Of a DNA stretch of 64,000 nt, positions 17,699 to 54,873 are shown one piece after another. Origin of the DNA: Candidatus Methylomirabilota bacterium (GTDB taxonomy: Bacteria; Methylomirabilota; Methylomirabilia; Rokubacteriales; CSP1-6); contig DATBIM010000156.1 of the NCBI GenBank assembly GCA_036556905.1, positions 2,210 through 66,209 of the forward strand. Reading direction: 5' to 3'. The position numbers and the translations under genes are program-made. The notes below the pieces were generated by a model. That model was not told the DNA's origin. It worked only from the letters and a program-made list of their open reading frames with translations, and did no database searches. How positions within the stretch are numbered: the stretch's first letter is position 1; every line of letters begins with the position of its first letter.

Positions 17699-19309
17699 AT
17701 GGAGGTGCTGAGCCCGCTGGGGGTGGCTGACACCCGGCCCCGGCCACTGGCCAAGCGTCCGGCCCGCCTCGCCGGCTGCCGGGTCGCCGTCCTCGACAAC
17801 TCCAAGCCCAACGCCGACGTGCTGCTGGAACGGCTGGCCGAGCTGCTCGTAGCCCGGGCCGGTGTGGCCGAGGTCCGCCGCTGGCGCAAGCCGGGCAGCT
17901 CCCGAGCGGCCGAGGAGATCGACGCGATCGTCGCGGCCGCCGACGTCGTCCTCACCGGCTCGGCGGACTGAGGCTCCTGCACGTCGTGGAGTATCCACGA
18001 CGCGGCGCAGATCGAGGGGCGGGGAGTCCCCACCGTTGTCCTCGGCACCGACCTGTTCGCCTCGCTGGGCCACAGTGCCGCCGCGGCGCTGGGCCTGCCC
18101 GACCTGCCCCTCGTGACCGTCGCCCACCCGATCGGGGGCGTCGATCCCCATGCCGTGGCGGCCCGCGCTGACGGCGTCCTCGACGCCGTCGTGGCGGCGC
18201 TGACCCGAGCGCCGGCGCACTCGCCCGCCGCGGCGCCCGGTGCGGTGGCCCTGCTGGCCGCCCCCGATGACATCGACGCCTTTCAGGAATTTGCTCTGGC
18301 CGAGGGCTGGGGCGACGGGCTTCCCGTGCTCCCGCCCACTCCTGAGCGAGTCGCGCGTGTGCTGGCCGGCCAGCGTGGCGACCAGGTCGTGGCCACCTTG
18401 CCGCCTCGGCGGGGCGTGGCGACGCTCGAGGCCATTGCGGTCAACGCCGCGCTGGCCGGCGCCGGGCCCGAGCAACTGCCCCTGATCGTGGCCGCCGTGC
18501 GCGCCGTCGCCGACCCCCGCTTCAACCTGGACGCGATCCAGGCCACCACCCACCCCTGCACGCCGCTGGTGATCGTCAACGGCCCCCTCGCTCGGCGCCT
18601 GGGCGTGCACAGCGGAGCCAACGCGCTGGGCCAGGGTCACCGGGCCAATGCGGTCGTGGGCCGCGGGCTGCGGCTCACGCTGCAGAACGTGGGCGGGGCC
18701 CGGGCCGGGCAGGGCGACCGCGCCACGCTCGGGCACCCCGGCAAGTTCACGTACTGCGTCGCCGAGAACGAGGCGGAGTCGCCCTGGGAGCCGCTGCACG
18801 TGGAGCGCGGCTTCGATGCCGCGGCGAGCTGCGTGACGGTGTGCGGTGCCGAGGCGCCCCACAACGTGAATGACCACGGCTCGACGTCCGCCGAGGCTTT
18901 GCTGCTGGCCCTGGCCGGCACCGCGGCGACCACCGGCAACAACAACATCTATCTGGGCGGCGAGCCGCTGATCCTCCTCGGTCCCGAGCACGCGCGGACG
19001 ATCGCCGGATCGGGCTGGTCCAAGCGCGATCTCAAGCGAGCATTGTTCGACCGCGCGCGGGTGCGCCTGGGGGCCTTCAGCGCGGAGAACCTGGCCCGCT
19101 TCGCCACGATCGATCCCGCGCGCTTCCGCGGCCGCTCGCCCGACGACACCGTCACCGTGGCCGTCACGCCGGACGACGTGATGGTGGTGGTGGCGGGGGG
19201 GCCCGGCAAGCACTCCGCCATCGTCCCCACGTTCGGCGCGACGCGCGCGGTGACCGTGCCCGTCGAGGCCCCGGGCGACGCGCCGGTTGCGGGGCCCCGC
19301 TCGCGGTGA
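17699..19309 (+). CDS. UGSC-motif selenoprotein fused to a ~400 aa domain of unknown function (in-frame UGA = Sec at 17969-17971)
   Basis: Same frame continues through TGA 17969-71 (…DVVLTGSAD-U-GSCTSW…). Both flanks are homologous to the stand-alone UGSC protein at 20429-20959. A hairpin follows the UGA. RBS AGGAGG before ATG 17699. Confidence 0.6.
17978..18010 (+). promoter_or_regulatory. candidate bacterial SECIS hairpin for UGA 17969
   Basis: GTCGTGG-AGTAT-CCACGAC (extendable), starting about 11 nt after the UGA. Confidence 0.5.
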
Positions 19310-19340
19310 TAGCGTGGCCGGCGCGAAAGGGAGGAGCCTC

Positions 19341-20432
19341 ATGGCGATCACGTTGACCTCACCGCGCCACGCCGTGGCGAACCTGGATGACGCTATCGAG
19401 TTCTGCTTCCAGCAGGGCTGGAGCGACGGGCTGCCCGTGGTGCCCCCCACCGAGGCCAAGGTGCAGGCCATGCTGGACGCCGCCAAGCTCGATCCCCAGC
19501 ACCAGGTGGCCTACGTGGAGCACCGGGCGGTATCCATCACCGCCGAGAAGGTGGCGATCAACGCGGTGATGGCCGGTTGCCTGCCCGCGTACATGCCGGT
19601 GGTGGTGGCTGCCGTCGAGGCCATCGGGGATCCTCGGTGGTCGTATCATGGCCCGGGCACCTCCACCGCCGGCGCCGGCGTGCTCATGATCGTGAACGGT
19701 CCCATTCGCCGTGAGCTCGACATCAACTGCGGCGACAACCTCTTCGGCCCGGGCTGGCGGTCGAATCTGACCATCGGCCGCGCCGTCCGCCTGATCATGC
19801 GCAACGTGTGCGGCTCGTGGCCGGGACGGCTCGACCGGGGGACGCTGGGCCATCCCGGCAAGCTCTCCTACGTCATCGGGGAAAACGAGGAGGAGAGCCC
19901 GTGGCCGCCGCTCCACGTCGAGCGGGGGCTGCGCCGCGAGCAGAGCGCGGTGACGGTGATGGCGGCGGAGGCGCCGCACCAGATCTACAACCAGCTCTCC
20001 AGCACCGCCGAGGGCGTCCTCACCACGCTCAGCGACGCCATGCGGATCTCCGGCAACGTGATGGGGCAGCCGCACTATGCCCTGATCCTCGCCGGCGAGC
20101 ACATGCGGACGATCGCCGGGAGCGGGTGGGGCAAGGACCAGATCCGGCGCTTCGTGTGGGAGCACACGCAGAACTCCCACGCCCACCTGCGGCGGACCGG
20201 TCGTATGGCGGGTCCCGTGCAGCCCGGCGACGAGGACAGGCTGCGACCGCTGGTGGAGAGCCCGGATGATATCCTGGTTGTGGCCGCCGGAGGCCGGGCC
20301 GGAAGCTTCTCGGCCTACATCCCCGGCTGGGGCAGCAAACGTTCCTCGCAGGCGGTGACAGTGGTGGTCGGAGGTGAGGTGAGCCGCTCGCCGAGCCGAC
20401 CCTTCAACGAGGCAAAGGAGGTCAGGCAATGA
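19341..20432 (+). CDS. conserved protein of unknown function, paralog of the C-terminal domain of the 17699-19309 gene
   Basis: Shared blocks with the upstream gene: GW(S/G)DGLPV(V/L)PPT, TLGHPGK..Y…ENE.ESPW.PLHVERG, TIAGSGW. RBS AGGGAGG before ATG 19341. Confidence 0.55.
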   Translation: MAITLTSPRHAVANLDDAIEFCFQQGWSDGLPVVPPTEAKVQAMLDAAKLDPQHQVAYVEHRAVSITAEKVAINAVMAGCLPAYMPVVVAAVEAIGDPRWSYHGPGTSTAGAGVLMIVNGPIRRELDINCGDNLFGPGWRSNLTIGRAVRLIMRNVCGSWPGRLDRGTLGHPGKLSYVIGENEEESPWPPLHVERGLRREQSAVTVMAAEAPHQIYNQLSSTAEGVLTTLSDAMRISGNVMGQPHYALILAGEHMRTIAGSGWGKDQIRRFVWEHTQNSHAHLRRTGRMAGPVQPGDEDRLRPLVESPDDILVVAAGGRAGSFSAYIPGWGSKRSSQAVTVVVGGEVSRSPSRPFNEAKEVRQ

Positions 20433-20959
20433 TCGAGATCCTCGACCCTACCACCCCGGCCGCCCGCCAGGCCATCGCCTATGCGCCGCGGCCCGGATCA
20501 CTCACGGGCAAGCGTGTCGCGTTGATCGAGAACACCAAGTTCAACTCCGATCGGCTGCTCCAGAAGATCGGCGACATCATGGTCAGGGAGTATGGGGCCG
20601 CCTCCACCCGGATGTGGCGCAAGAAGAACGCCAGCGTGCCGGCGCACGAGGAGATCATCGCCGAGGTGCGCCGAACCTGCGACGTGGTCGTCGCCGGCAT
20701 CGGTGATTGAGGGTCCTGCTCGTCGGGCAGTGTGCTCGACGGAATCGTGCTCGAGAAGGCCGGCGTTCCCTCGGCGTCGATCGTGACCGACGTGTTCGAG
20801 CGGACGGCCCGGGCCATGGCCGAGCAGTGGGGCCTCCCGACCTACCGGTTCCTCATGATGCCGCACCCCATCGCCAACCTCAGCGAGGCCGAGCTGGACC
20901 AGCGAGCTCGCGCGATCGTCTCGGAGGTGGCCAAGCTCCTCCTCCAGGGTCAGGAGTGA
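20429..20959 (+). CDS. UGSC family selenoprotein, stand-alone (in-frame UGA = Sec at 20708-20710)
   Basis: …DVVVAGIGD-U-GSCSSGS… Reading frame continues to 20959. Homologous to both flanks of the UGSC region of the 17699 gene. ATGA overlap with the upstream gene; RBS AGGAGG. Confidence 0.6.
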
Positions 20960-20969
20960 GGCCGGCGCG

Positions 20970-25692: not shown

Positions 25693-25747
25693 GTCCGACC
25701 TCCTCGCTTGAGGCAGGCATCATCTCGAGGCGGGCATAATATAGAGG

Positions 25748-26446
25748 GTGCTCCGATCCATGTCGAGAGTACCGATCTCGCTTGCGCTGGCCACCGTGCT
25801 GATCACCGTCGCCACGGGCGTGGCGTATCTCGCCCTGCGCTGGGAGCCGGGGGACGAGACGGCAACCCCGATCGCCGCTCAGCCGCCGCGCGCCGAGCCG
25901 ACGGCGCCTTCAGCGTCGGCCCCGCCGCCGGCGGACACTCCGTCCCCCCGCCCGGCCAAGCCGCGGCCCGGCCGCCAGCTCGCTCTCGACGCCGCCATGC
26001 GCGAGCTCGACCTGATCCAGCCGTCGCGGACGCGCGCCGTGCAGGATTTCACGCTGCCGCTGGTGGGCGGCAAGTCGTTCCGCCTGACCGGCCATCGGGG
26101 GCAGATCCTGCTCATCAATTTCTGGGCGACCTGGTGCCCGCCCTGCCTCGAGGAGATGCCGGCGCTGGAGCGCCTGTGGCGTCAGCATCGGGACCACGGC
26201 TTCGTCCTGCTCGCCGTGTCGCTGGACACCGATTCCGGGCTCGTGGGTCCCTTCCTGGCCCGGCATCGCCTCACCTTCCCGGTCGCGCTCGACCCCAAGT
26301 ACGAGGTGGCCAATCTCTACGGCGTGCGGGCGCTGCCCGCGACCTTCGTCGTCGATCGGCTCGGGAACCTGGCCGCGCTGGCGCTGGGACCGCGAACCTG
26401 GGACAATGACGCGGCGCATTCCCTGGTGGAGGCTCTGGCGAAATAG
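25748..26446 (+). CDS. TlpA/ResA-like thiol:disulfide oxidoreductase (membrane-anchored thioredoxin fold)
   Basis: WATWCPPC active site with an N-terminal TM anchor. Confidence 0.7.
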   Translation: MLRSMSRVPISLALATVLITVATGVAYLALRWEPGDETATPIAAQPPRAEPTAPSASAPPPADTPSPRPAKPRPGRQLALDAAMRELDLIQPSRTRAVQDFTLPLVGGKSFRLTGHRGQILLINFWATWCPPCLEEMPALERLWRQHRDHGFVLLAVSLDTDSGLVGPFLARHRLTFPVALDPKYEVANLYGVRALPATFVVDRLGNLAALALGPRTWDNDAAHSLVEALAK

Positions 26447-26448
26447 GG

Positions 26449-27186
26449 ATGGGACAGTCGGTCGGCGTGGCAGTGGCGTTCAGCGCGGGCCTCTTCTCGT
26501 TCTTGTCGCCCTGCGTGCTGCCGCTGTTCCCCTCGTACCTGTCCTTTATCACTGGCATGTCGGTGGCCGACCTCACGGGCGACATCGCCCCCGCTGCGCG
26601 CCGGCGCGTGCTCCTGCACGCCCTGACCTTCGTGGCCGGCTTCTCGATGGTCTTCATCTCGCTGGGAGCGACCTTCAGCGCGGCCGGGCAGTTCCTGCTC
26701 GAGCATCGTGAGTCGATCCGCCGCCTGGGCGGCGCGCTGATCGTGCTCTTCGGCCTCTACATCGCCGGGGTGTTTCGCCTGGGCCTCTTCGGCCGCACCG
26801 CACAGCTCCAGTTCCGTGAGAAGCCGGCGGGTTATGCTGGCTCGCTCCTGGTGGGCATCACCTTCGCGATTGGGTGGACGCCCTGCGTGGGTCCCATCCT
26901 GGGGGCGATCCTGTCGTTGGCCGGTACCGCGGAGACGGTGCAGCGGGGTGTGGGCCTCCTCATCGCCTATTCGGCGGGCCTGGGTGTGCCCTTCCTGCTC
27001 TCCGCGCTGGCGCTCGGCTCGTTCCTGCGCTTCTTCAAGCGCTACCGCCCGTTCATCCCCGTCGTCGAGCGCGCCGCCGGGGTCCTGCTCGTCGTGGTGG
27101 GCGTGCTCGTCTTCACGAATTACTACACGGTCCTCAACGCCTGGGCCATCTCCCTGACGCCCGAGTGGCTGCTCAAGCGGCTCTAG
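26449..27186 (+). CDS. ccdA: cytochrome c-type biogenesis protein CcdA (DsbD-like thiol-disulfide transporter)
   Basis: FLSPCVLPLFP and …TPCVGPILG… Cys pair. Confidence 0.75.
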   Translation: MGQSVGVAVAFSAGLFSFLSPCVLPLFPSYLSFITGMSVADLTGDIAPAARRRVLLHALTFVAGFSMVFISLGATFSAAGQFLLEHRESIRRLGGALIVLFGLYIAGVFRLGLFGRTAQLQFREKPAGYAGSLLVGITFAIGWTPCVGPILGAILSLAGTAETVQRGVGLLIAYSAGLGVPFLLSALALGSFLRFFKRYRPFIPVVERAAGVLLVVVGVLVFTNYYTVLNAWAISLTPEWLLKRL

Positions 27187-30556: not shown

Positions 30557-30640
30557 AAAGAACCGCTGGCCTTCCGCATCTGTTAGAATTGAGCGGGGAC
30601 GGTGGTATGGGCGTTAGCCACCGACCGACGGAGAGCGCCT

Positions 30641-30844
30641 ATGGCAGAGCAGAAGAAGAAAGAGACGAGGCCCACCAAGCCCTCCGAGGGCGGCGACGGG
30701 GCGGCGGCAGGCAGCCCGGAGCTGGCCAAGAAGGGCAAGAAGATCAAGGAAGACATCGACAAGCTCCTCGACGAGATCGATGAGATTCTCGAAGAGAATG
30801 CCGAGGAGTTCGTGAAGAGCTACGTGCAGCGGGGAGGCCAGTAG
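30641..30844 (+). CDS. pup: prokaryotic ubiquitin-like protein Pup (C-terminal GGQ)
   Basis: …IKEDIDKLLDEIDEILEENAEEFVKSYVQRGGQ* is near-identical in pattern to the actinobacterial Pup C-terminus. RBS GGAGAG before ATG 30641. Confidence 0.75.
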   Translation: MAEQKKKETRPTKPSEGGDGAAAGSPELAKKGKKIKEDIDKLLDEIDEILEENAEEFVKSYVQRGGQ

Positions 30845-30847
30845 CCG

Positions 30848-31060
30848 GTGCCCCTGTACGAGTACCGCTGTGCCGGCTGCAATCAGGAGTTCGAACGCTA
30901 TGTGGCCACGCCGACCGCCGCGGTAACGTGCCCGGCCTGCACAAGCGGGAACGTCAAGCGCAAGCTCTCGCTGTTCGCCTTCAAGGCGGAAGGGGGAGCG
31001 ATGTCGACCGCCATGCCCTCGGGCGGCTCCTGCTGCGGGGGCGGTTGCTCCTGCCACTGA
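30848..31060 (+). CDS. FmdB family zinc-ribbon protein
   Basis: MPLYEYRCAGCNQEFE…CPAC…; Cys/Gly-rich tail. Confidence 0.65.
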   Translation: MPLYEYRCAGCNQEFERYVATPTAAVTCPACTSGNVKRKLSLFAFKAEGGAMSTAMPSGGSCCGGGCSCH

Positions 31061-31089: not shown

Positions 31090-32004
31090 ATGGATCTTCG
31101 CCGGCTCGAGGTCTTCGTGAAAGTCGCCGAGCTGGGGAGCTTCTCGCGCGCCGCCGAGGCGCTCTTTCTCACCCAGCCGACGGTGTCCGAGCATGTGCGC
31201 GCTCTCGAGGAGGACCTGGGTGTGCAACTGCTCGATCGCCTGGGCCGGGGAGCCGCCCCCACTCCGGCGGGACAGCTCCTGCTGGGCTACGCCCACCGCA
31301 TCCTGGCACTCATGCGCGAGGCGCGTCAGGCTGTCGATCGATTCCAGGGCCGTTTGCTCGGAGAGCTCATCGTGGGCGGCAGCACCATCCCCGGCGAGTA
31401 CATCCTTCCCGCCCTCATCGGCCAGTTCAAGGCCAAGTATCCCGATATCTCCATCAGCCTGCGCGTCGGTTCCAGCCAGCAGATCAGCGAGTGGGTGGAA
31501 GAGGGTCGGGTGGAGATCGGTGTCGTCGGGGCTCGTCCGGGCAGCCGGGCGCTGGTCGCCCGCGAGTTGATGGCCGACGAGATGGTGATCGTGGTGCCTC
31601 CCGAGCACCCCTGGACCCGACGGCCGAGCGTCGGGCTGGCCGACATCCGCGCGGAACCGCTCCTGCTGCGGGAACGCGGCTCGGGGACGCGGCAAGCGCT
31701 GGAGCGCGCGTTGGCCGAGGCGGGGACGGACCTGAGCGCCTTCCGGGTGGCTGGCGAGATGGGGTCCACCCAGGCGGTGAAGCAGGCGGTGCGAGCCGGG
31801 ATCGGCGTGACATTGCTGTCCAGGCTGGCCGTCGAGGACGAGTGCCGGGCCCGGCTCCTCGTGTGCGTGCGCGTGGAGGGTCTCGACGTTCGCCGGTCGT
31901 TCCACCTGGTGACCCATCGCGAACGCAGTCGCTCGCCGCTGGCGCAGGCCTTCCTGGAGTTCATAGAATCCCAGGCCGCCTCGGGGGCATCGCAAGAGCC
32001 GTGA
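31090..32004 (+). CDS. LysR family transcriptional regulator
   Basis: N-terminal HTH …FSRAAEALFLTQPTVSEHVRALE… and a LysR substrate-binding domain. Confidence 0.8.
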   Translation: MDLRRLEVFVKVAELGSFSRAAEALFLTQPTVSEHVRALEEDLGVQLLDRLGRGAAPTPAGQLLLGYAHRILALMREARQAVDRFQGRLLGELIVGGSTIPGEYILPALIGQFKAKYPDISISLRVGSSQQISEWVEEGRVEIGVVGARPGSRALVARELMADEMVIVVPPEHPWTRRPSVGLADIRAEPLLLRERGSGTRQALERALAEAGTDLSAFRVAGEMGSTQAVKQAVRAGIGVTLLSRLAVEDECRARLLVCVRVEGLDVRRSFHLVTHRERSRSPLAQAFLEFIESQAASGASQEP

Positions 32005-33062
32005 CGGGCAAAGAGATCCGTCTCACCGCCTACGCCTCCTGCGCGGGCTGAGCGTCCAAGATGGCTCCTGGAGATCTCCAGGAGGTGCTGGCCGTGCTCA
32101 GATCCGATCGCCCGACGGCCGCCCACGAGAACCTGCTGGTGGGCCTGGGACGCGCGGACGATGCGGCCGTCTACCGGTTGGCTCCCGATCTGGCTATCGT
32201 CGAGACGCTCGACTTCTTTCCGCCGGTCGTCGATGACCCTTATGTGTGGGGTGCCGTCGCCGCGGCCAATGCCATGTCCGACGTCTATGCGATGGGGGGC
32301 GAGGTGATGTTCGCCCTGGCCATCGCCGGCTTTCCCCGCGACATGCCCAAGTCGATCATCGCCGATGTCTTCCGGGGCGCCGCGGACAAGGTGGCCGAGG
32401 CGGGAGGCGTCGTGGCCGGGGGCCATACCGTCATCGACAACGAGCCCAAGTATGGGCTCTGTGTTACCGGCCGAATCCATCCCGATCGCGTCCTCCTCAA
32501 GGGCGGCCTCCGCCCGGGTGACCGTCTGTTCCTGTCCAAGCCCCTGGGCACCGGCGTCATCACCACGGCGGGCAAGGACGATGCGGCTCCGAGCGATATT
32601 CTGGCCGGCGCCGTCGCCAGCATGCTGAGGCTCAACCGGGTGGCGGCCCAGGTGGCCATTGCCGGCGGCGCCCGGGGCGCGACCGATGTCACGGGGTTCG
32701 GCCTGCTCGGTCACGCCGGCGAGATGGTGGAGGCGTCGGGGGCTGGGATCGAGGTGTCCTCCCGCCGCCTTCCGCTGCTGCCCGGCGCCCTGGCCCTCGC
32801 CGAGAAGGGACACTTCAGCGGGGGGATGAAGCGCAACCGCCGCTACGTCGAGGGCGTGTTCGGGCCCCGGCTCACGATCGACGCCGCGGTGGCTCCCGCG
32901 CTCGCTTCCCTCATGTTCGAGGCAGAGACCTCCGGGGGGCTGCTCTTCTCCGTCACGCCTGACCGGGCCCAGCGCGTGCTGGCCGACTTTGCCACTCGGG
33001 GGGAAACGGGCGTCGAGATCGGCGTCGTCCTCAGCGAGCCGCTGATTCGCGTCGTCCCCTGA
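32001..33062 (+). CDS. selD: selenide, water dikinase (selenophosphate synthetase) SelD with active-site selenocysteine (UGA 32049-32051)
   Basis: GTG 32001 overlaps the LysR stop (GTGA). N-terminus MTGKEIRLTAYASCAG-U-ASK… matches the SelD Sec/Cys loop. Downstream AIR-synthase-like fold. Hairpin after the UGA. Confidence 0.75.
32066..32085 (+). promoter_or_regulatory. candidate SECIS hairpin for selD UGA
   Basis: Perfect inverted repeat CTCCTGGAGA/TCTCCAGGAG, 15 nt downstream of the UGA. Confidence 0.5.
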
Positions 33063-33074
33063 CCGCCGAGGCGT

Positions 33075-33620
33075 CTAGGGCAGAAGCCCTCTCACGCGAG
33101 CCAGAACGTCATCGGTCGCCCAGTCCAGCTCGCCAACGACAGAGTAGCGGACAAGACCATCCGGACCGACCAGGAAGGTGGCTGGCAGCGTACGCACCCG
33201 CCAGGCCTCGATGGCCTCGTGGCGAGGATCGCGCAGCATCGGAAAGTCAACGGGCACGTGCCCCAGAAAGCTATTGATACGGGAGGCCGACTCGCCGTAG
33301 TTGACGCCCAGCACCGCGAAGGGCTGGCCGGCCAGCCGCTCGCGGAGCCGTTGGATCGAAGGCATCTCATCGCGGCAGGGCGGGCACCACGTCGCCCAGA
33401 AGTTGATCAAGACCACGCGGCCCTGGTACCGGGCGAGCGTATGGGTGGTTCCGCCGAGATCCTTGAGCTCCAGCGGTGGCGTTGGTCCGCGCCAGGGCCG
33501 AAACCGATCGACGTTTTCCGCGTCGGCCTGGACCCACAGCGCCAGCACGAGGAGCAGCGCGGCCGTGACGAGGCGCGGGCAGCTCCACCCGGGCGGAAGG
33601 CCGGCCGAGGGGTCAGGCAC
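33075..33620 (-). CDS. TlpA family thiol-disulfide oxidoreductase, secreted
   Basis: FWATWCPPC motif with an N-terminal signal/anchor. Confidence 0.7.
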   Translation of the reverse strand: MPDPSAGLPPGWSCPRLVTAALLLVLALWVQADAENVDRFRPWRGPTPPLELKDLGGTTHTLARYQGRVVLINFWATWCPPCRDEMPSIQRLRERLAGQPFAVLGVNYGESASRINSFLGHVPVDFPMLRDPRHEAIEAWRVRTLPATFLVGPDGLVRYSVVGELDWATDDVLARVRGLLP

Positions 33621-47071: not shown

Positions 47072-47503
47072 ATGCTGCGATTCACCAAGCGCGCTGACTA
47101 CGGACTGATGGCGATCTACTACATCGCCGTGCACGAGGACGGCGGGGCTGTCAGCGCCAAGCGGATCGCGGAAGAATTCGGGATTCCGCCCGAGCTTCTG
47201 GCCAAGATCCTCCAGCGGCTGGCCCGCGAGCGACTGATCGTGAGTCAGAACGGCCCCAAGGGGGGGTACGTGCTGAGCCGGCGGCCCAGTGAGGTCACGG
47301 TGGGGGAAGTGCTCCGCGCCATCGAAGGCCCGATCAACATCGTGAGTTGTCTCGAGGACTCCGAGTGTCCCCAGATCGAGCGGTGCAACCTGCGGCGTCC
47401 GGTTCAGAAGATCCAGGCCGCCATCACGCAACTGCTGGACACGATGAGCCTGGCCGAGCTGGGGGGCCAAGACGTGCCCCTGCTGCTGGCCATCAAGGGA
47501 TGA
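47072..47503 (+). CDS. iscR: Rrf2-family Fe-S cluster regulator IscR
   Basis: MLRFTKRADYGLMAIYY… wHTH and C-terminal C…C…C ligands. First gene of the isc operon. Confidence 0.8.
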   Translation: MLRFTKRADYGLMAIYYIAVHEDGGAVSAKRIAEEFGIPPELLAKILQRLARERLIVSQNGPKGGYVLSRRPSEVTVGEVLRAIEGPINIVSCLEDSECPQIERCNLRRPVQKIQAAITQLLDTMSLAELGGQDVPLLLAIKG

Positions 47504-47522
47504 GGGTGAGGGGAGCGCATCG

Positions 47523-48749
47523 ATGACCGTGAAGTTTCCCATTTTCCTGGACGCGCAATCGACGACCCCCTGTGATCCCCGGGTGGTCGAGGCCATGTTG
47601 CCGTACTTCACCGAGAAATTCGGGCACCCGGCCAGTCGCAACCACCCCTTCGGCTGGGAGGCCGAGGGGGCCTGCGACGCGGCTCGGGCCAGCATCGCGC
47701 GACTGATCGGCGCGCGCGATCCCAAGGAAGTGGTGTTCACCTCGGGGGGCACAGAGGCGATCAACCTCGCCCTCAAGGGTGCCGCCGAGATGTACCGGGA
47801 GAAGGGGACACACATCGTCACCACCGTCATCGAGCAGCGGGCGGGGATCGACACCTGCAAGCGTCTGGAGCGGCAGGGGTTCCAGGTGACGTATGTGCCG
47901 GTGCAGTCCAACGGGCTCGTCGACGTCGAGGAGATCGGCCGGGCCGTCACCAACGCGACGATTCTCATCTCGGTGATGTTCGCCAACAACGAGATCGGGA
48001 CGATCCAGGACGTCGCCGCCATCGGAAGGCTGGCCAAGGACAGGGGCATCATCTTCCACACCGATGCCACCCAGGCCGTAGGCAAGATCCCGGTCGACGT
48101 GGAGGCCATGGGCATCGACCTCCTGTCCTGCACGGCCCACCTCATGTACGGGCCCAAAGGGGTCGGTGCGCTCTACGTCCGCCGCAAGGCGCCGCGGGTC
48201 CGCCTGGCCGCGCTCCTCGATGGGGGCGGTCATGAGCGCGGCCTCCGCTCGGGGACGTTGCCGGTTCCCCTCTGCGTCGGCTTCGGCCGGGCGGCCGAGA
48301 TCTGTCGGGAGGTCATGCCGGAGGAGAGCCAGCGCCTGGGCAAGCTCCGGGACCAGCTTCAAGATTTCATCCTGGCCAACGTGGAGGATGCTTACCTCAA
48401 CGGTGATCCCGATCGGCGGCTGCCCCACAACCTCAACGTGTCGTTCGCCTACGTGGAGGGAGAGTCGGTGCTGATGGGGCTGAACAAGGAGACCGCGCTC
48501 AGCTCGGGCTCGGCCTGCACCTCGTCGACCCTGGAGCCCTCGTACGTGATCGCGGCCCTGGGGGCCAGCGCGGAGCTGGCCCACTCGTCGATCCGGTTCA
48601 GCCTGCACCGGTTCACCACCCAGGCTGAGATCGACTGGGTCGGCCGGCGGACGGTGGAGGTTGTCAAACGGCTACGGGACATGTCGCCGCTCTACGAGCT
48701 GGCGAAAGAAGGTGTGGATCTGAAGTCCATCCAGTGGAAGGCCGAGTAG
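47523..48749 (+). CDS. iscS: cysteine desulfurase IscS
   Basis: PLP-dependent class V motifs and the SSGSACTS active-site Cys loop. Confidence 0.9.
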   Translation: MTVKFPIFLDAQSTTPCDPRVVEAMLPYFTEKFGHPASRNHPFGWEAEGACDAARASIARLIGARDPKEVVFTSGGTEAINLALKGAAEMYREKGTHIVTTVIEQRAGIDTCKRLERQGFQVTYVPVQSNGLVDVEEIGRAVTNATILISVMFANNEIGTIQDVAAIGRLAKDRGIIFHTDATQAVGKIPVDVEAMGIDLLSCTAHLMYGPKGVGALYVRRKAPRVRLAALLDGGGHERGLRSGTLPVPLCVGFGRAAEICREVMPEESQRLGKLRDQLQDFILANVEDAYLNGDPDRRLPHNLNVSFAYVEGESVLMGLNKETALSSGSACTSSTLEPSYVIAALGASAELAHSSIRFSLHRFTTQAEIDWVGRRTVEVVKRLRDMSPLYELAKEGVDLKSIQWKAE

Positions 48750-53350: not shown

Positions 53351-53674
53351 TCAGTTCAGCGCGATGAAGCGATCGGTCGCGTTGATGATGTCGGTCAGGA
53401 CGACCAGGCCGCAGTAGGTCAGCTCAGGGGAGTCTTCGAGGGGAATGCGGCGCTTCTGGCAGCCGTACGCGCACAGGAAGAGCTTGGCCCCGCGCGCCGG
53501 CAGGGCGCGGAGGCGGGGATCGCGCACGGCCCGCACCCCGTCGTCGATCAGGTACAGGTAGAGATCGGTGCCGTGATCGAGCGCGGCGGTCGCCAGCCCC
53601 AGCGCGGTCTCGATGTTCGGATGCTCGGGGCCGGTGGAAAGCAGCAGGCCGAACTTTTTTCTGCCCGGGGCCAT
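53351..53674 (-). CDS. TusD/DsrE-like sulfur relay protein
   Basis: 107 aa with LFLCAYGCQ active-Cys region typical of DsrE/TusD. Confidence 0.55.
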   Translation of the reverse strand: MAPGRKKFGLLLSTGPEHPNIETALGLATAALDHGTDLYLYLIDDGVRAVRDPRLRALPARGAKLFLCAYGCQKRRIPLEDSPELTYCGLVVLTDIINATDRFIALN

Positions 53675-53715
53675 CGCCGCCCGAGCCTAACATCGGGGCG
53701 GCGAGAGGGCAACCG

Positions 53716-54873
53716 ATGAGCCGGCGGGTCTATCTCGATCACAACGCCTCCACGCCCGTTCATCCCGACGTCGTTGACGCGATGCTGCCGTACCTGGGTG
53801 AACGGTTCGGGAACCCATCCAGCGTTCATGGCTTCGGCCGGGAGGCCCGCGACGGCGTGGAGCAGGCCCGCGAGCGGGTCGCGAGCCTGCTGGGTGTCTC
53901 GCCCGAGGAGATCGTGTTCACCTCGGGCGGTACGGAGTCCGACAACCTCGGGATCAAGGGCCTGGCCGGGGCCGGCCCCCGCGGTCACCTCATCACCTCG
54001 CAGATCGAGCATCCCGCCGTGCTCCGCACGTGCCAGGCGCTGGAAGCCGAGGGCTTTGCCGTCACCTACCTGCCGGTGGACGAGCACGGCGTGGTCGATC
54101 CTGGCGACGTCAAGCGGGCCATCCGCCCCGACACCCGCGCCATCAGCGTCATGCACGCCAACAGCGAGATCGGCACCGTGCAGCCGGTGGCCGCCATCGG
54201 CGCCATCGCCCGCGAGCACGGCATCGCCTTGCACGTGGACGCCGTGCAGACCTTCGGGAAGATTCCCCTGGATCTGACCGCGCTGGCCATCGACGCCATG
54301 TCGGTATCCGCCCACAAGATTTATGGCCCCAAAGGGGTGGGTGCCCTCTTCGTCCGCCGGGGGACGCGGATGGTGGGGATCCAGCATGGTGGTGAGCACG
54401 AGCGACGGCGGCGGGCCGGCACCGAGAACGTCCCGGGCATCGTGGGCTTCGGCCGGGCCGTGGAGATCCGGTCCCGCGAGATGGGGCCGGAGGCCGAGCG
54501 CCTGCGTGCGCTGCGCGACCGGTTAACGGATGGTGTGCGGGCCCGTCTGGACGAGGTCCGGCTCATCGGGCATCCCGGGGAGCGGCTCCCCGGGACGGCG
54601 AATCTCGCCTTCCGCCACGTGGAGTCGGAGTCCATCGTCCTCGGGCTGGATCTCAAGGGCGTGGCCGTGTCGGCCGGCACAGCGTGCACCGCCGGCCATG
54701 TGGAGCCCTCCCACGTGCTGACGGCGCTGGGGCTGCCGCCGGCGTGGGCGATGGGCGCGGTGCGGTGCTCCCTGGGCCGCTCCACCACGGCCCAGGACAT
54801 CGACTACGTCATCGAGTGCCTGGAGGCGGTGGTGGGGAAGCTGCGCCGCCTGCTCCCGACAGGGCCCGCATGA
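53716..54873 (+). CDS. NifS/IscS-type cysteine desulfurase (second copy)
   Basis: Class V aminotransferase fold motifs; active loop SAGTACTAG. Confidence 0.8.
   Translation: MSRRVYLDHNASTPVHPDVVDAMLPYLGERFGNPSSVHGFGREARDGVEQARERVASLLGVSPEEIVFTSGGTESDNLGIKGLAGAGPRGHLITSQIEHPAVLRTCQALEAEGFAVTYLPVDEHGVVDPGDVKRAIRPDTRAISVMHANSEIGTVQPVAAIGAIAREHGIALHVDAVQTFGKIPLDLTALAIDAMSVSAHKIYGPKGVGALFVRRGTRMVGIQHGGEHERRRRAGTENVPGIVGFGRAVEIRSREMGPEAERLRALRDRLTDGVRARLDEVRLIGHPGERLPGTANLAFRHVESESIVLGLDLKGVAVSAGTACTAGHVEPSHVLTALGLPPAWAMGAVRCSLGRSTTAQDIDYVIECLEAVVGKLRRLLPTGPA

Follow-up and report, generated by a model that had tools for sequence, protein, structure and literature searches.

A probable selenocysteine-containing SelD with an in-frame SECIS-like hairpin in Methylomirabilota, and the correction of its shortened gene model

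The 64,000-nucleotide (nt) stretch of DNA analysed here (the window; contig DATBIM010000156.1 of assembly GCA_036556905.1, a Candidatus Methylomirabilota bacterium of the order Rokubacteriales) carries a gene for the selenophosphate synthetase SelD, which directly follows a gene for a LysR-type regulator; all features described below lie on the forward strand unless stated otherwise. The uncorrected open frame of selD in the open reading frame (ORF) listing runs from an ATG (32061..33062, 333 amino acids) and does not contain the catalytic N-terminal loop of the family. Read upstream of ATG 32061, the same frame gives ...AVTGKEIRLTAYASCAG, a stop codon and then ASKMAPGDLQEVL, where the stop is TGA 32049-32051 and a GTG stands at 32001-32003. 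Reading from this GTG through the TGA restores the loop as IRLTAYASCAG-U-ASK, where U is selenocysteine (Sec), and gives a full coding sequence of 353 codons including Sec (32001..33062), with the Sec codon at 32049-32051 and the true stop at TGA 33060-33062. An earlier reading made from the sequence only had proposed this extension, with GTG 32001 overlapping the LysR stop codon; both parts of the proposal hold, since the LysR ORF ends at 32004 and its stop, TGA 32002-32004, shares the sequence GTGA with the selD start (32001..32004). The identical 333-amino-acid product is present in public records under the name 'selenide, water dikinase SelD [Methylomirabilota bacterium]', so the truncation sits in the databases too and not only in the ORF track, and a truncation to about 332 amino acids recurs in 120/120 of the homologue clusters listed, some of them named Rokubacteria or Methylomirabilota.

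The identity of the extended protein was assessed with Sec written as Cys. It scored 347.6 bits against the NCBIfam profile TIGR00476 (selD; cutoff 125) in a match that begins at its residue 7 and spans profile positions 1-310 of 311, so that this score needs the upstream segment, and it contains an AIRS domain (PF00586, 76.2 bits) and an AIRS_C domain (PF02769, 66 bits). Among proteins of known structure it matched SelD of Escherichia coli (3u0o, 2.9e-61) and of Aquifex aeolicus (2yye, 2.3e-55). In the first alignment IRLTAYASCAG[U]ASKMAPGDL stands against IRLTQYSHGAG[C]GCKISPKVL of E. coli, which places the TGA (32049..32051, residue 17) on Cys17, within the active-site loop to which the sequence-only reading had assigned it, and the Lys three residues further on at Lys20; the motifs DDAAVY, DFF, SD(V/I)YAMGG and TDVTGFGLLGH, which we take to carry the metal- and ATP-binding Asp residues, are kept in the same alignment. 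In the second, ...CAG[U]ASKMAPGDLQEVL stands against ...SSG[C]AAKVGPGDLQEIL, the Aquifex loop being aligned as SSG[C]AAK; the native residue there is Sec, reportedly mutated to Cys for crystallography. In the extended protein, the family profile and both structures place the loop at residues 13-20 and nowhere else, and no second Cys/Sec loop, which would have spoken against the extension, was found in the protein that starts at ATG 32061. The motif that had been put forward for the loop, G-x-G-U/C-x-x-K, agrees with the sequence in the U and the Lys, whereas its first Gly is a Cys here (C-A-G-U-A-S-K).

Relatives of the gene were collected by a scan that kept one genome per species and yielded 80 loci, whose SelD is 52-85% identical in amino acids to that of the window; the titles are nearly all Rokubacteria or Methylomirabilota, with three Chloroflexi and a few bins labelled otherwise. 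With the window they make up 81 Sec-type sequences, and the codon statistics given below come from 76 Rokubacteria genomes. TGA occupies the Sec column in 81/81 Sec-type sequences; neither TAA nor TAG ever stands there, although both are found a short way upstream in these loci. The flanks of the TGA are conserved across the 80 loci as [IV]RLT[AS]YA[AS]CAG ahead of it and ASKM after it, and because the amino acids of the upstream peptide are kept while third codon positions vary (Arg as CGG, CGC, CGA, CGT or AGG; Thr as ACC, ACG or ACT), the segment ahead of the TGA appears to be translated. TGA is otherwise an ordinary stop in this genome, ending both the LysR gene and selD itself, so any recoding must be local and not a genome-wide reassignment.

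The same comparison bears on the start codon. At the column of GTG 32001, 11 relatives have ATG and the closest one (L007) has GTG, and in nearly all relatives an ATG lies 15-23 codons ahead of the Sec codon; on these grounds GTG 32001 is supported as the true start, as the sequence-only reading had held. The start chosen by the ORF caller, ATG 32061, corresponds to a conserved internal residue of the full SelD, Met21, and has no Shine-Dalgarno site ahead of it.

A second conserved residue in the loop is Cys14 (32040-32042), three residues ahead of Sec (C-A-G-U, or CxxU), which the 81 Sec-type sequences share without exception and which is also kept, as CxxC, in the 19 Cys-type relatives described below. 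Set against the Cys17/Cys19 pair of E. coli, this CxxU/CxxC pattern suggests, from sequence comparison, a different arrangement of the resolving thiol in this SelD subfamily.

Downstream of the TGA, positions 32065-32084 form the perfect 20-nt palindrome CTCCTGGAGATCTCCAGGAG that the sequence-only reading had noted, although the distance of 15 nt given there does not stand: the hairpin begins 13 nt past the last base of the TGA, or 16 nt from its first base. The palindrome forms a candidate core hairpin of a bacterial selenocysteine insertion sequence (SECIS; 32065..32084) with an 8-base-pair (bp) stem, CUCCUGGA/UCCAGGAG, the loop GAUC, 21 nt from UGA to loop and a folding energy of -12.6 kcal/mol. 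The bacterial SECIS (bSECIS) consensus (PMC13188914 Fig. 2) comprises four criteria: the stem has 4-16 bp and the apical loop 3-9 nt, at least one of the first two loop bases is G, the loop lies 16-37 nt from the UGA, and the minimum free energy (MFE) does not exceed -7.5 kcal/mol. With its 4-nt loop, 8-bp stem, G at the first loop position, 21-nt spacing and energy of -12.6 kcal/mol, the selD hairpin lies within the consensus on all four.

The hairpin is part of a 27-nt block, ATGGCTCCTGGAGATCTCCAGGAGGTG (32061..32087, including the ATG of Met21), whose nucleotides are nearly invariant across Rokubacteria. Read as codons, the stem is GCT-CCT-GGA-(GAT)-CTC-CAG-GAG, with the loop codon in brackets. 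Over the 76 Rokubacteria genomes GCT, CCT, GGA, CTC, CAG and GAG are present in 76, 76, 72, 76, 76 and 76, respectively, and their synonymous shares in the rest of the same 76 selD genes are 2.5%, 3.3%, 5.7%, 49%, 94% and 89%; the loop codon GAT is kept in 74/76, against a background of 18.9% of Asp codons. The product of these background frequencies, GAT included, is about 3.6e-6 for a single sequence. Three variants that change GGA to GGG retain the pairing as G-U, and the neighbouring codons (Ala +1, Ser +2, Lys +3 and Leu +13) vary normally. This freezing of rare synonymous codons shows that selection acts on the RNA at the hairpin. In the MFE fold, extra U-G/G-U pairs form outside the core, and the flanks of the 27-nt block may, according to this model, extend the stem by such wobble pairs. 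The MFE fold also contains a long-range lower stem that pairs the UGA region with 32090-32100; it was not counted as part of the element, as the downstream bases vary among relatives.

Cys-type relatives offer a comparison. One metagenome scan for the Cys version of the loop (...CAG-C-ASKMGPGDL...) found 19 contigs (L087-L105; 41-48% identity) that carry Cys (TGY) at the same column within one continuous ORF. They share the loop and the domain layout of the window SelD and differ from it in having TGY for TGA and no hairpin: the homologous 20 nt have folding energies of -3.2 to +10.6 kcal/mol, against -12.6 kcal/mol here, and the third positions of Gly and Pro codons vary freely over the hairpin region. 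These sequences suggest that hairpin loss in Cys-type SelD may serve as a natural control, if not a strict one, the relatives being distant. The absence of the hairpin matches the loss of SECIS structure in Cys-type SelD attributed to Inoue et al. 2024 where that work is cited in PMC13582414.

Sec-type relatives at the edge of the sample depart from the Rokubacteria hairpin in other ways. The three Chloroflexi selD genes (L084, L085 and L086) are without it and have another 7-bp hairpin 26-45 nt after the UGA, GGCGCA[G/A]-GU[G/C]-[C/U]UGCGCC, which has 33 nt from UGA to loop, agrees with the bSECIS criteria and shows a compensatory change from G-C to A-U between lineages. In two divergent Sec-type sequences (L074 and L077; 67% identity, with MGPGELQDVL) no simple hairpin agreeing with the bSECIS criteria was found just after the UGA; these two may instead have a SECIS with a bulge or one from a different class.

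The gene that overlaps the start of selD (31090..32004) encodes a selenium-metabolism LysR regulator (LysR_Se), which scored 305.6 bits against NF040786 (LysR_Sec_metab; cutoff 250); at least 68 of the 80 related loci likewise encode LysR_Se directly 5' of selD. The LysR_Se subfamily has been reported only from organisms that contain SelD and almost always decode Sec (PMC5322559), and the window protein resembles LysR_Se/HrsM (NF040786) both in exceeding the equivalog cutoff and in adjoining a gene of the Sec pathway, a position that the same paper describes for the subfamily. Unlike the divergent arrangement common for LysR regulators, this gene is co-directional with selD, and the GTGA overlap of its stop with the selD start suggests that the two are on one transcript.

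A systematic scan of the window for TGA codons with coding-like sequence on both sides found two further candidate selenoprotein genes, both of the UGSC family and both missed by ORF calling. The first (17700..18207) starts at ATG 17700 with AGGAGG upstream and, read through its Sec TGA (17969-17971; frame ...TGSAD-U-GSCTSW..., motif D-U-GSC-T), scored 140.5 bits against NF041046 (cutoff 125) and 172.8 bits against PF24696, over profile positions 1-171 of 172; its hairpin (17982-18002, 9 bp, loop GUA) is perfect and begins 10 nt after the UGA. The second (20430..20960), read from ATG 20430 through its Sec TGA (20708-20710; frame ...AGIGD-U-GSCSSG..., motif D-U-GSC-S), scored 144.7 bits against NF041046 at the same cutoff and has a 9-bp hairpin with loop GUG (20721-20741). 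Both hairpins have 19 nt from UGA to loop and conform to the bSECIS consensus. The window thus holds three independent units of a UGA plus a hairpin with the same geometry, all in known selenoprotein families. Between the two UGSC genes, the frame of the first stays open to 19309, for about 369 more codons (18200-19309) with coding-like GC content at third codon positions, and the next ORF (19254-20432) has 392 amino acids; the products of 18200-19309 and 19254-20432 had no Pfam or NCBIfam match, and either a pair of unknown proteins or one long C-terminal extension is encoded in this interval.

Taken together, we consider it very probable, from sequence and comparison, that the product of selD 32001-33062 is a complete selenophosphate synthetase with Sec, inserted at UGA 32049-32051, as residue 17 in its catalytic N-terminal loop. 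The comparative evidence, TGA in 81/81 Sec-type sequences and the freezing of rare codons in the stem, is decisive in placing the pattern beyond chance, and Sec decoding has further, indirect support from the two UGSC genes with their hairpins, from the LysR_Se neighbour (PMC5322559) and from the published use of Sec in Methylomirabilota, which are reported to be rich in selenoproteins (PMC13188914, PMC13582414). Translation would start at GTG 32001 and, given the GTGA overlap, lysR_Se and selD are probably transcribed together, with coupled translation. Once a ribosome arrives at the UGA, the hairpin 13 nt further on would, by analogy with E. coli fdhF, act as a bacterial SECIS and recruit SelB-GTP-Sec-tRNASec, so that Sec is inserted in place of termination, and ATG 32061 would be read as the internal Met21 and not as a start. 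Since SelD makes selenophosphate, it would supply the selenium for its own Sec, and its synthesis may be self-reinforcing, an old hypothesis in the literature, to which the autoregulation of selenium use named in the sequence-only reading also belongs.

Several observations weigh against this interpretation. The loop of the hairpin starts with GA and not with the commoner G[G/U]; its folding energy is only modestly better than that of shuffled sequences (z about -2.2 to -2.3, with 3-7 of 200 shuffles folding as well); and no Rfam family matched at the gathering threshold anywhere in the 64 kb, nor any relevant family in a permissive scan of 31950-32200, although the Rfam models do not cover bacterial SECIS elements in a form that would detect this one. 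Covariation lends weak support, with 95.8% of cells paired over the 81 sequences, four cells changed on both sides and the stem nearly invariant; we relied on the freezing of synonymous codons, together with the loss of the hairpin in Cys-type relatives, because covariation is uninformative in a stem that barely varies. The machinery for Sec incorporation was likewise not found near the gene. ARAGORN detected no tRNA gene in the 64-kb window; Pfam scans of nearly all coding-like ORFs of the window found neither SelA nor SelB; an approximate search for the SelA (GDK..GGPQ) and SelB (GH[VI]DHGK[TS]) motifs in about 1 Mb, comprising the window and the related loci, was negative; and selA, selB and a tRNA-Sec gene were all absent within about 6 kb of selD in the 80 related loci. 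The sole ARAGORN call in 56 related loci, a 94-nt 'tRNA-???' about 2 kb upstream of selD (L061 3818-3911), is probably a false positive, since it is embedded in long ORFs and Rfam supports it neither as tRNA nor as tRNA-Sec. The Sec machinery would be encoded elsewhere than in the window. The phylum itself is reported to hold the largest predicted bacterial selenoproteome (PMC13188914); a Methylomirabilota metagenome-assembled genome with 63 predicted selenoprotein genes is mentioned in the same paper with reference to Deng et al. 2026, and Sec-type [NiFeSe] hydrogenases have been reported from Methylomirabilota (PMC13582414).

Among the alternatives, the one that fares best accepts the frozen 27-nt element and gives it another or an added role, as a translational pause or attenuator, a binding site for a protein or a small RNA, or an internal Shine-Dalgarno sequence. 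Conservation does extend beyond the 8-bp stem, to ATGG before it and GTG after it (74/76), the loop GAUC is itself fixed, and the 3' arm of the hairpin holds a perfect Shine-Dalgarno-like AGGAGG (32080-32085). We nevertheless consider such a role unlikely because SECIS function alone predicts a conserved stem, loop and distance to the UGA, the element is lost in the Cys-type relatives and no independent evidence favours any of these roles; an internal start at GTG 32094 was rejected, since this in-frame GTG, 8 nt past the AGGAGG, is not conserved (Val in 47/76). A related proposal, to which we also give a low probability, is that a phylum-wide frozen element with a GAUC loop, wobble flanks and AGGAGG could be more than a generic SECIS, either a lineage-specific recognition code for SelB or a dual-purpose element that would tie SelD translation to the availability of Sec-tRNA and SelB. 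If the latter were true, it would work as a switch with positive feedback, linked to the LysR_Se gene that overlaps selD, and would set the size of an unusually large selenoproteome.

It is far less probable that the UGA is decoded not, or not only, as Sec, whether as Cys or Trp by near-cognate or dedicated tRNAs or as Cys through SelB when selenium is scarce, which would make the protein effectively a Cys-type SelD. Some bacteria do recode Sec codons non-canonically through tRNA-Cys and SelB (Vargas-Rodriguez et al. 2018, as cited in PMC13582414), and DNA alone does not give the inserted residue; but the hairpin has the geometry of a SelB-dependent SECIS, residue 17 is where SelD classically carries Sec or Cys (PMC13188914), TGA serves as an ordinary stop at the neighbouring genes, and the same arrangement recurs in the window in two other genes of a known selenoprotein kind. 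Equally remote is the idea that the TGA is a genuine stop, with SelD starting at ATG 32061 and working, or being repurposed, without the loop and with the upstream 16 codons non-coding or a leader peptide, which would agree with ORF calling, with all public annotations (products of about 332 amino acids in more than 100 clusters) and with the lack of Sec machinery in the window, but leaves unexplained an upstream segment that is conserved as an in-frame protein in 80 genomes, out to Chloroflexi, and that agrees position for position with the family profile and with the E. coli loop, a codon that is always TGA and never TAA or TAG, homologues with Cys at that codon in a continuous ORF, an ATG 32061 without upstream Shine-Dalgarno sequence and the inactivation of E. 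coli SelD by loss of either Cys17 or Lys20.

Placed among known systems, the predicted Sec-type SelD belongs to the second most widespread family of prokaryotic selenoproteins, in which Sec lies in the N-terminal selenium-binding loop (PMC13188914). It resembles the Sec-containing SelD/SEPHS2 of Haemophilus influenzae, A. aeolicus and Methanococcus in the loop position of Sec, followed by x-x-Lys, and in a SECIS just downstream within the coding region; it differs from them in coming from another phylum (Rokubacteria/Methylomirabilota) and in a SECIS sequence that is lineage-specific and essentially invariant across that phylum, and from E. coli SelD in having CxxU where that protein has the C17/C19 arrangement. 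The hairpin is like the E. coli fdhF/fdnG prototype and the bSECISearch model in being a stem-loop inside the ORF just past the UGA and within the consensus ranges, whereas its sequence does not resemble those of the E. coli elements, its loop is GAUC and its binding by SelB is only predicted here.

Other genes of the window were noted alongside. Upstream of the lysR_Se-selD pair lie a Pup-like gene (30602-30844) whose product ends in ...GGQ (PF05639, 80.7 bits) and, between it and lysR_Se, a gene for a small Zn-ribbon protein (30848-31060). Thiol:disulfide oxidoreductase genes (TlpA/ResA-like, with WCPPC), both of the Cys form, flank the locus: one (33075-33620, reverse strand) is convergent with selD, with 12 nt between the stops, and the other (25745-27186) is paired with a DsbD_TM gene. 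Two genes for class-V aminotransferases/cysteine desulfurases were also found (47448-48746 and 53389-54870), the first of them IscS (NF010611, 593.9 bits) with genes for Rrf2, a DnaJ-domain protein and Hsp70 nearby; enzymes of this class can act as selenocysteine lyases and supply selenide for SelD.

A Sec-type SelD, a LysR_Se neighbour and a SECIS of this geometry are all of kinds already known, so the result is a correction of annotation and not a discovery, and the understanding of Sec decoding is unchanged by it. What is particular to the lineage is a SECIS frozen across the phylum, its GAUC loop, a CxxU motif with an invariant Cys and public gene models that are systematically shortened. 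The corrected SelD has 353 residues with Sec17, against 333 amino acids in public records, and accurate gene models bear on how selenium dependence and selenoproteome size are estimated in this phylum of soil and groundwater. The frozen SECIS, set beside Cys-type relatives that have no hairpin, provides a clean natural example of RNA constraint on synonymous sites, and its invariance makes it a ready search pattern for Sec-type SelD throughout the phylum.

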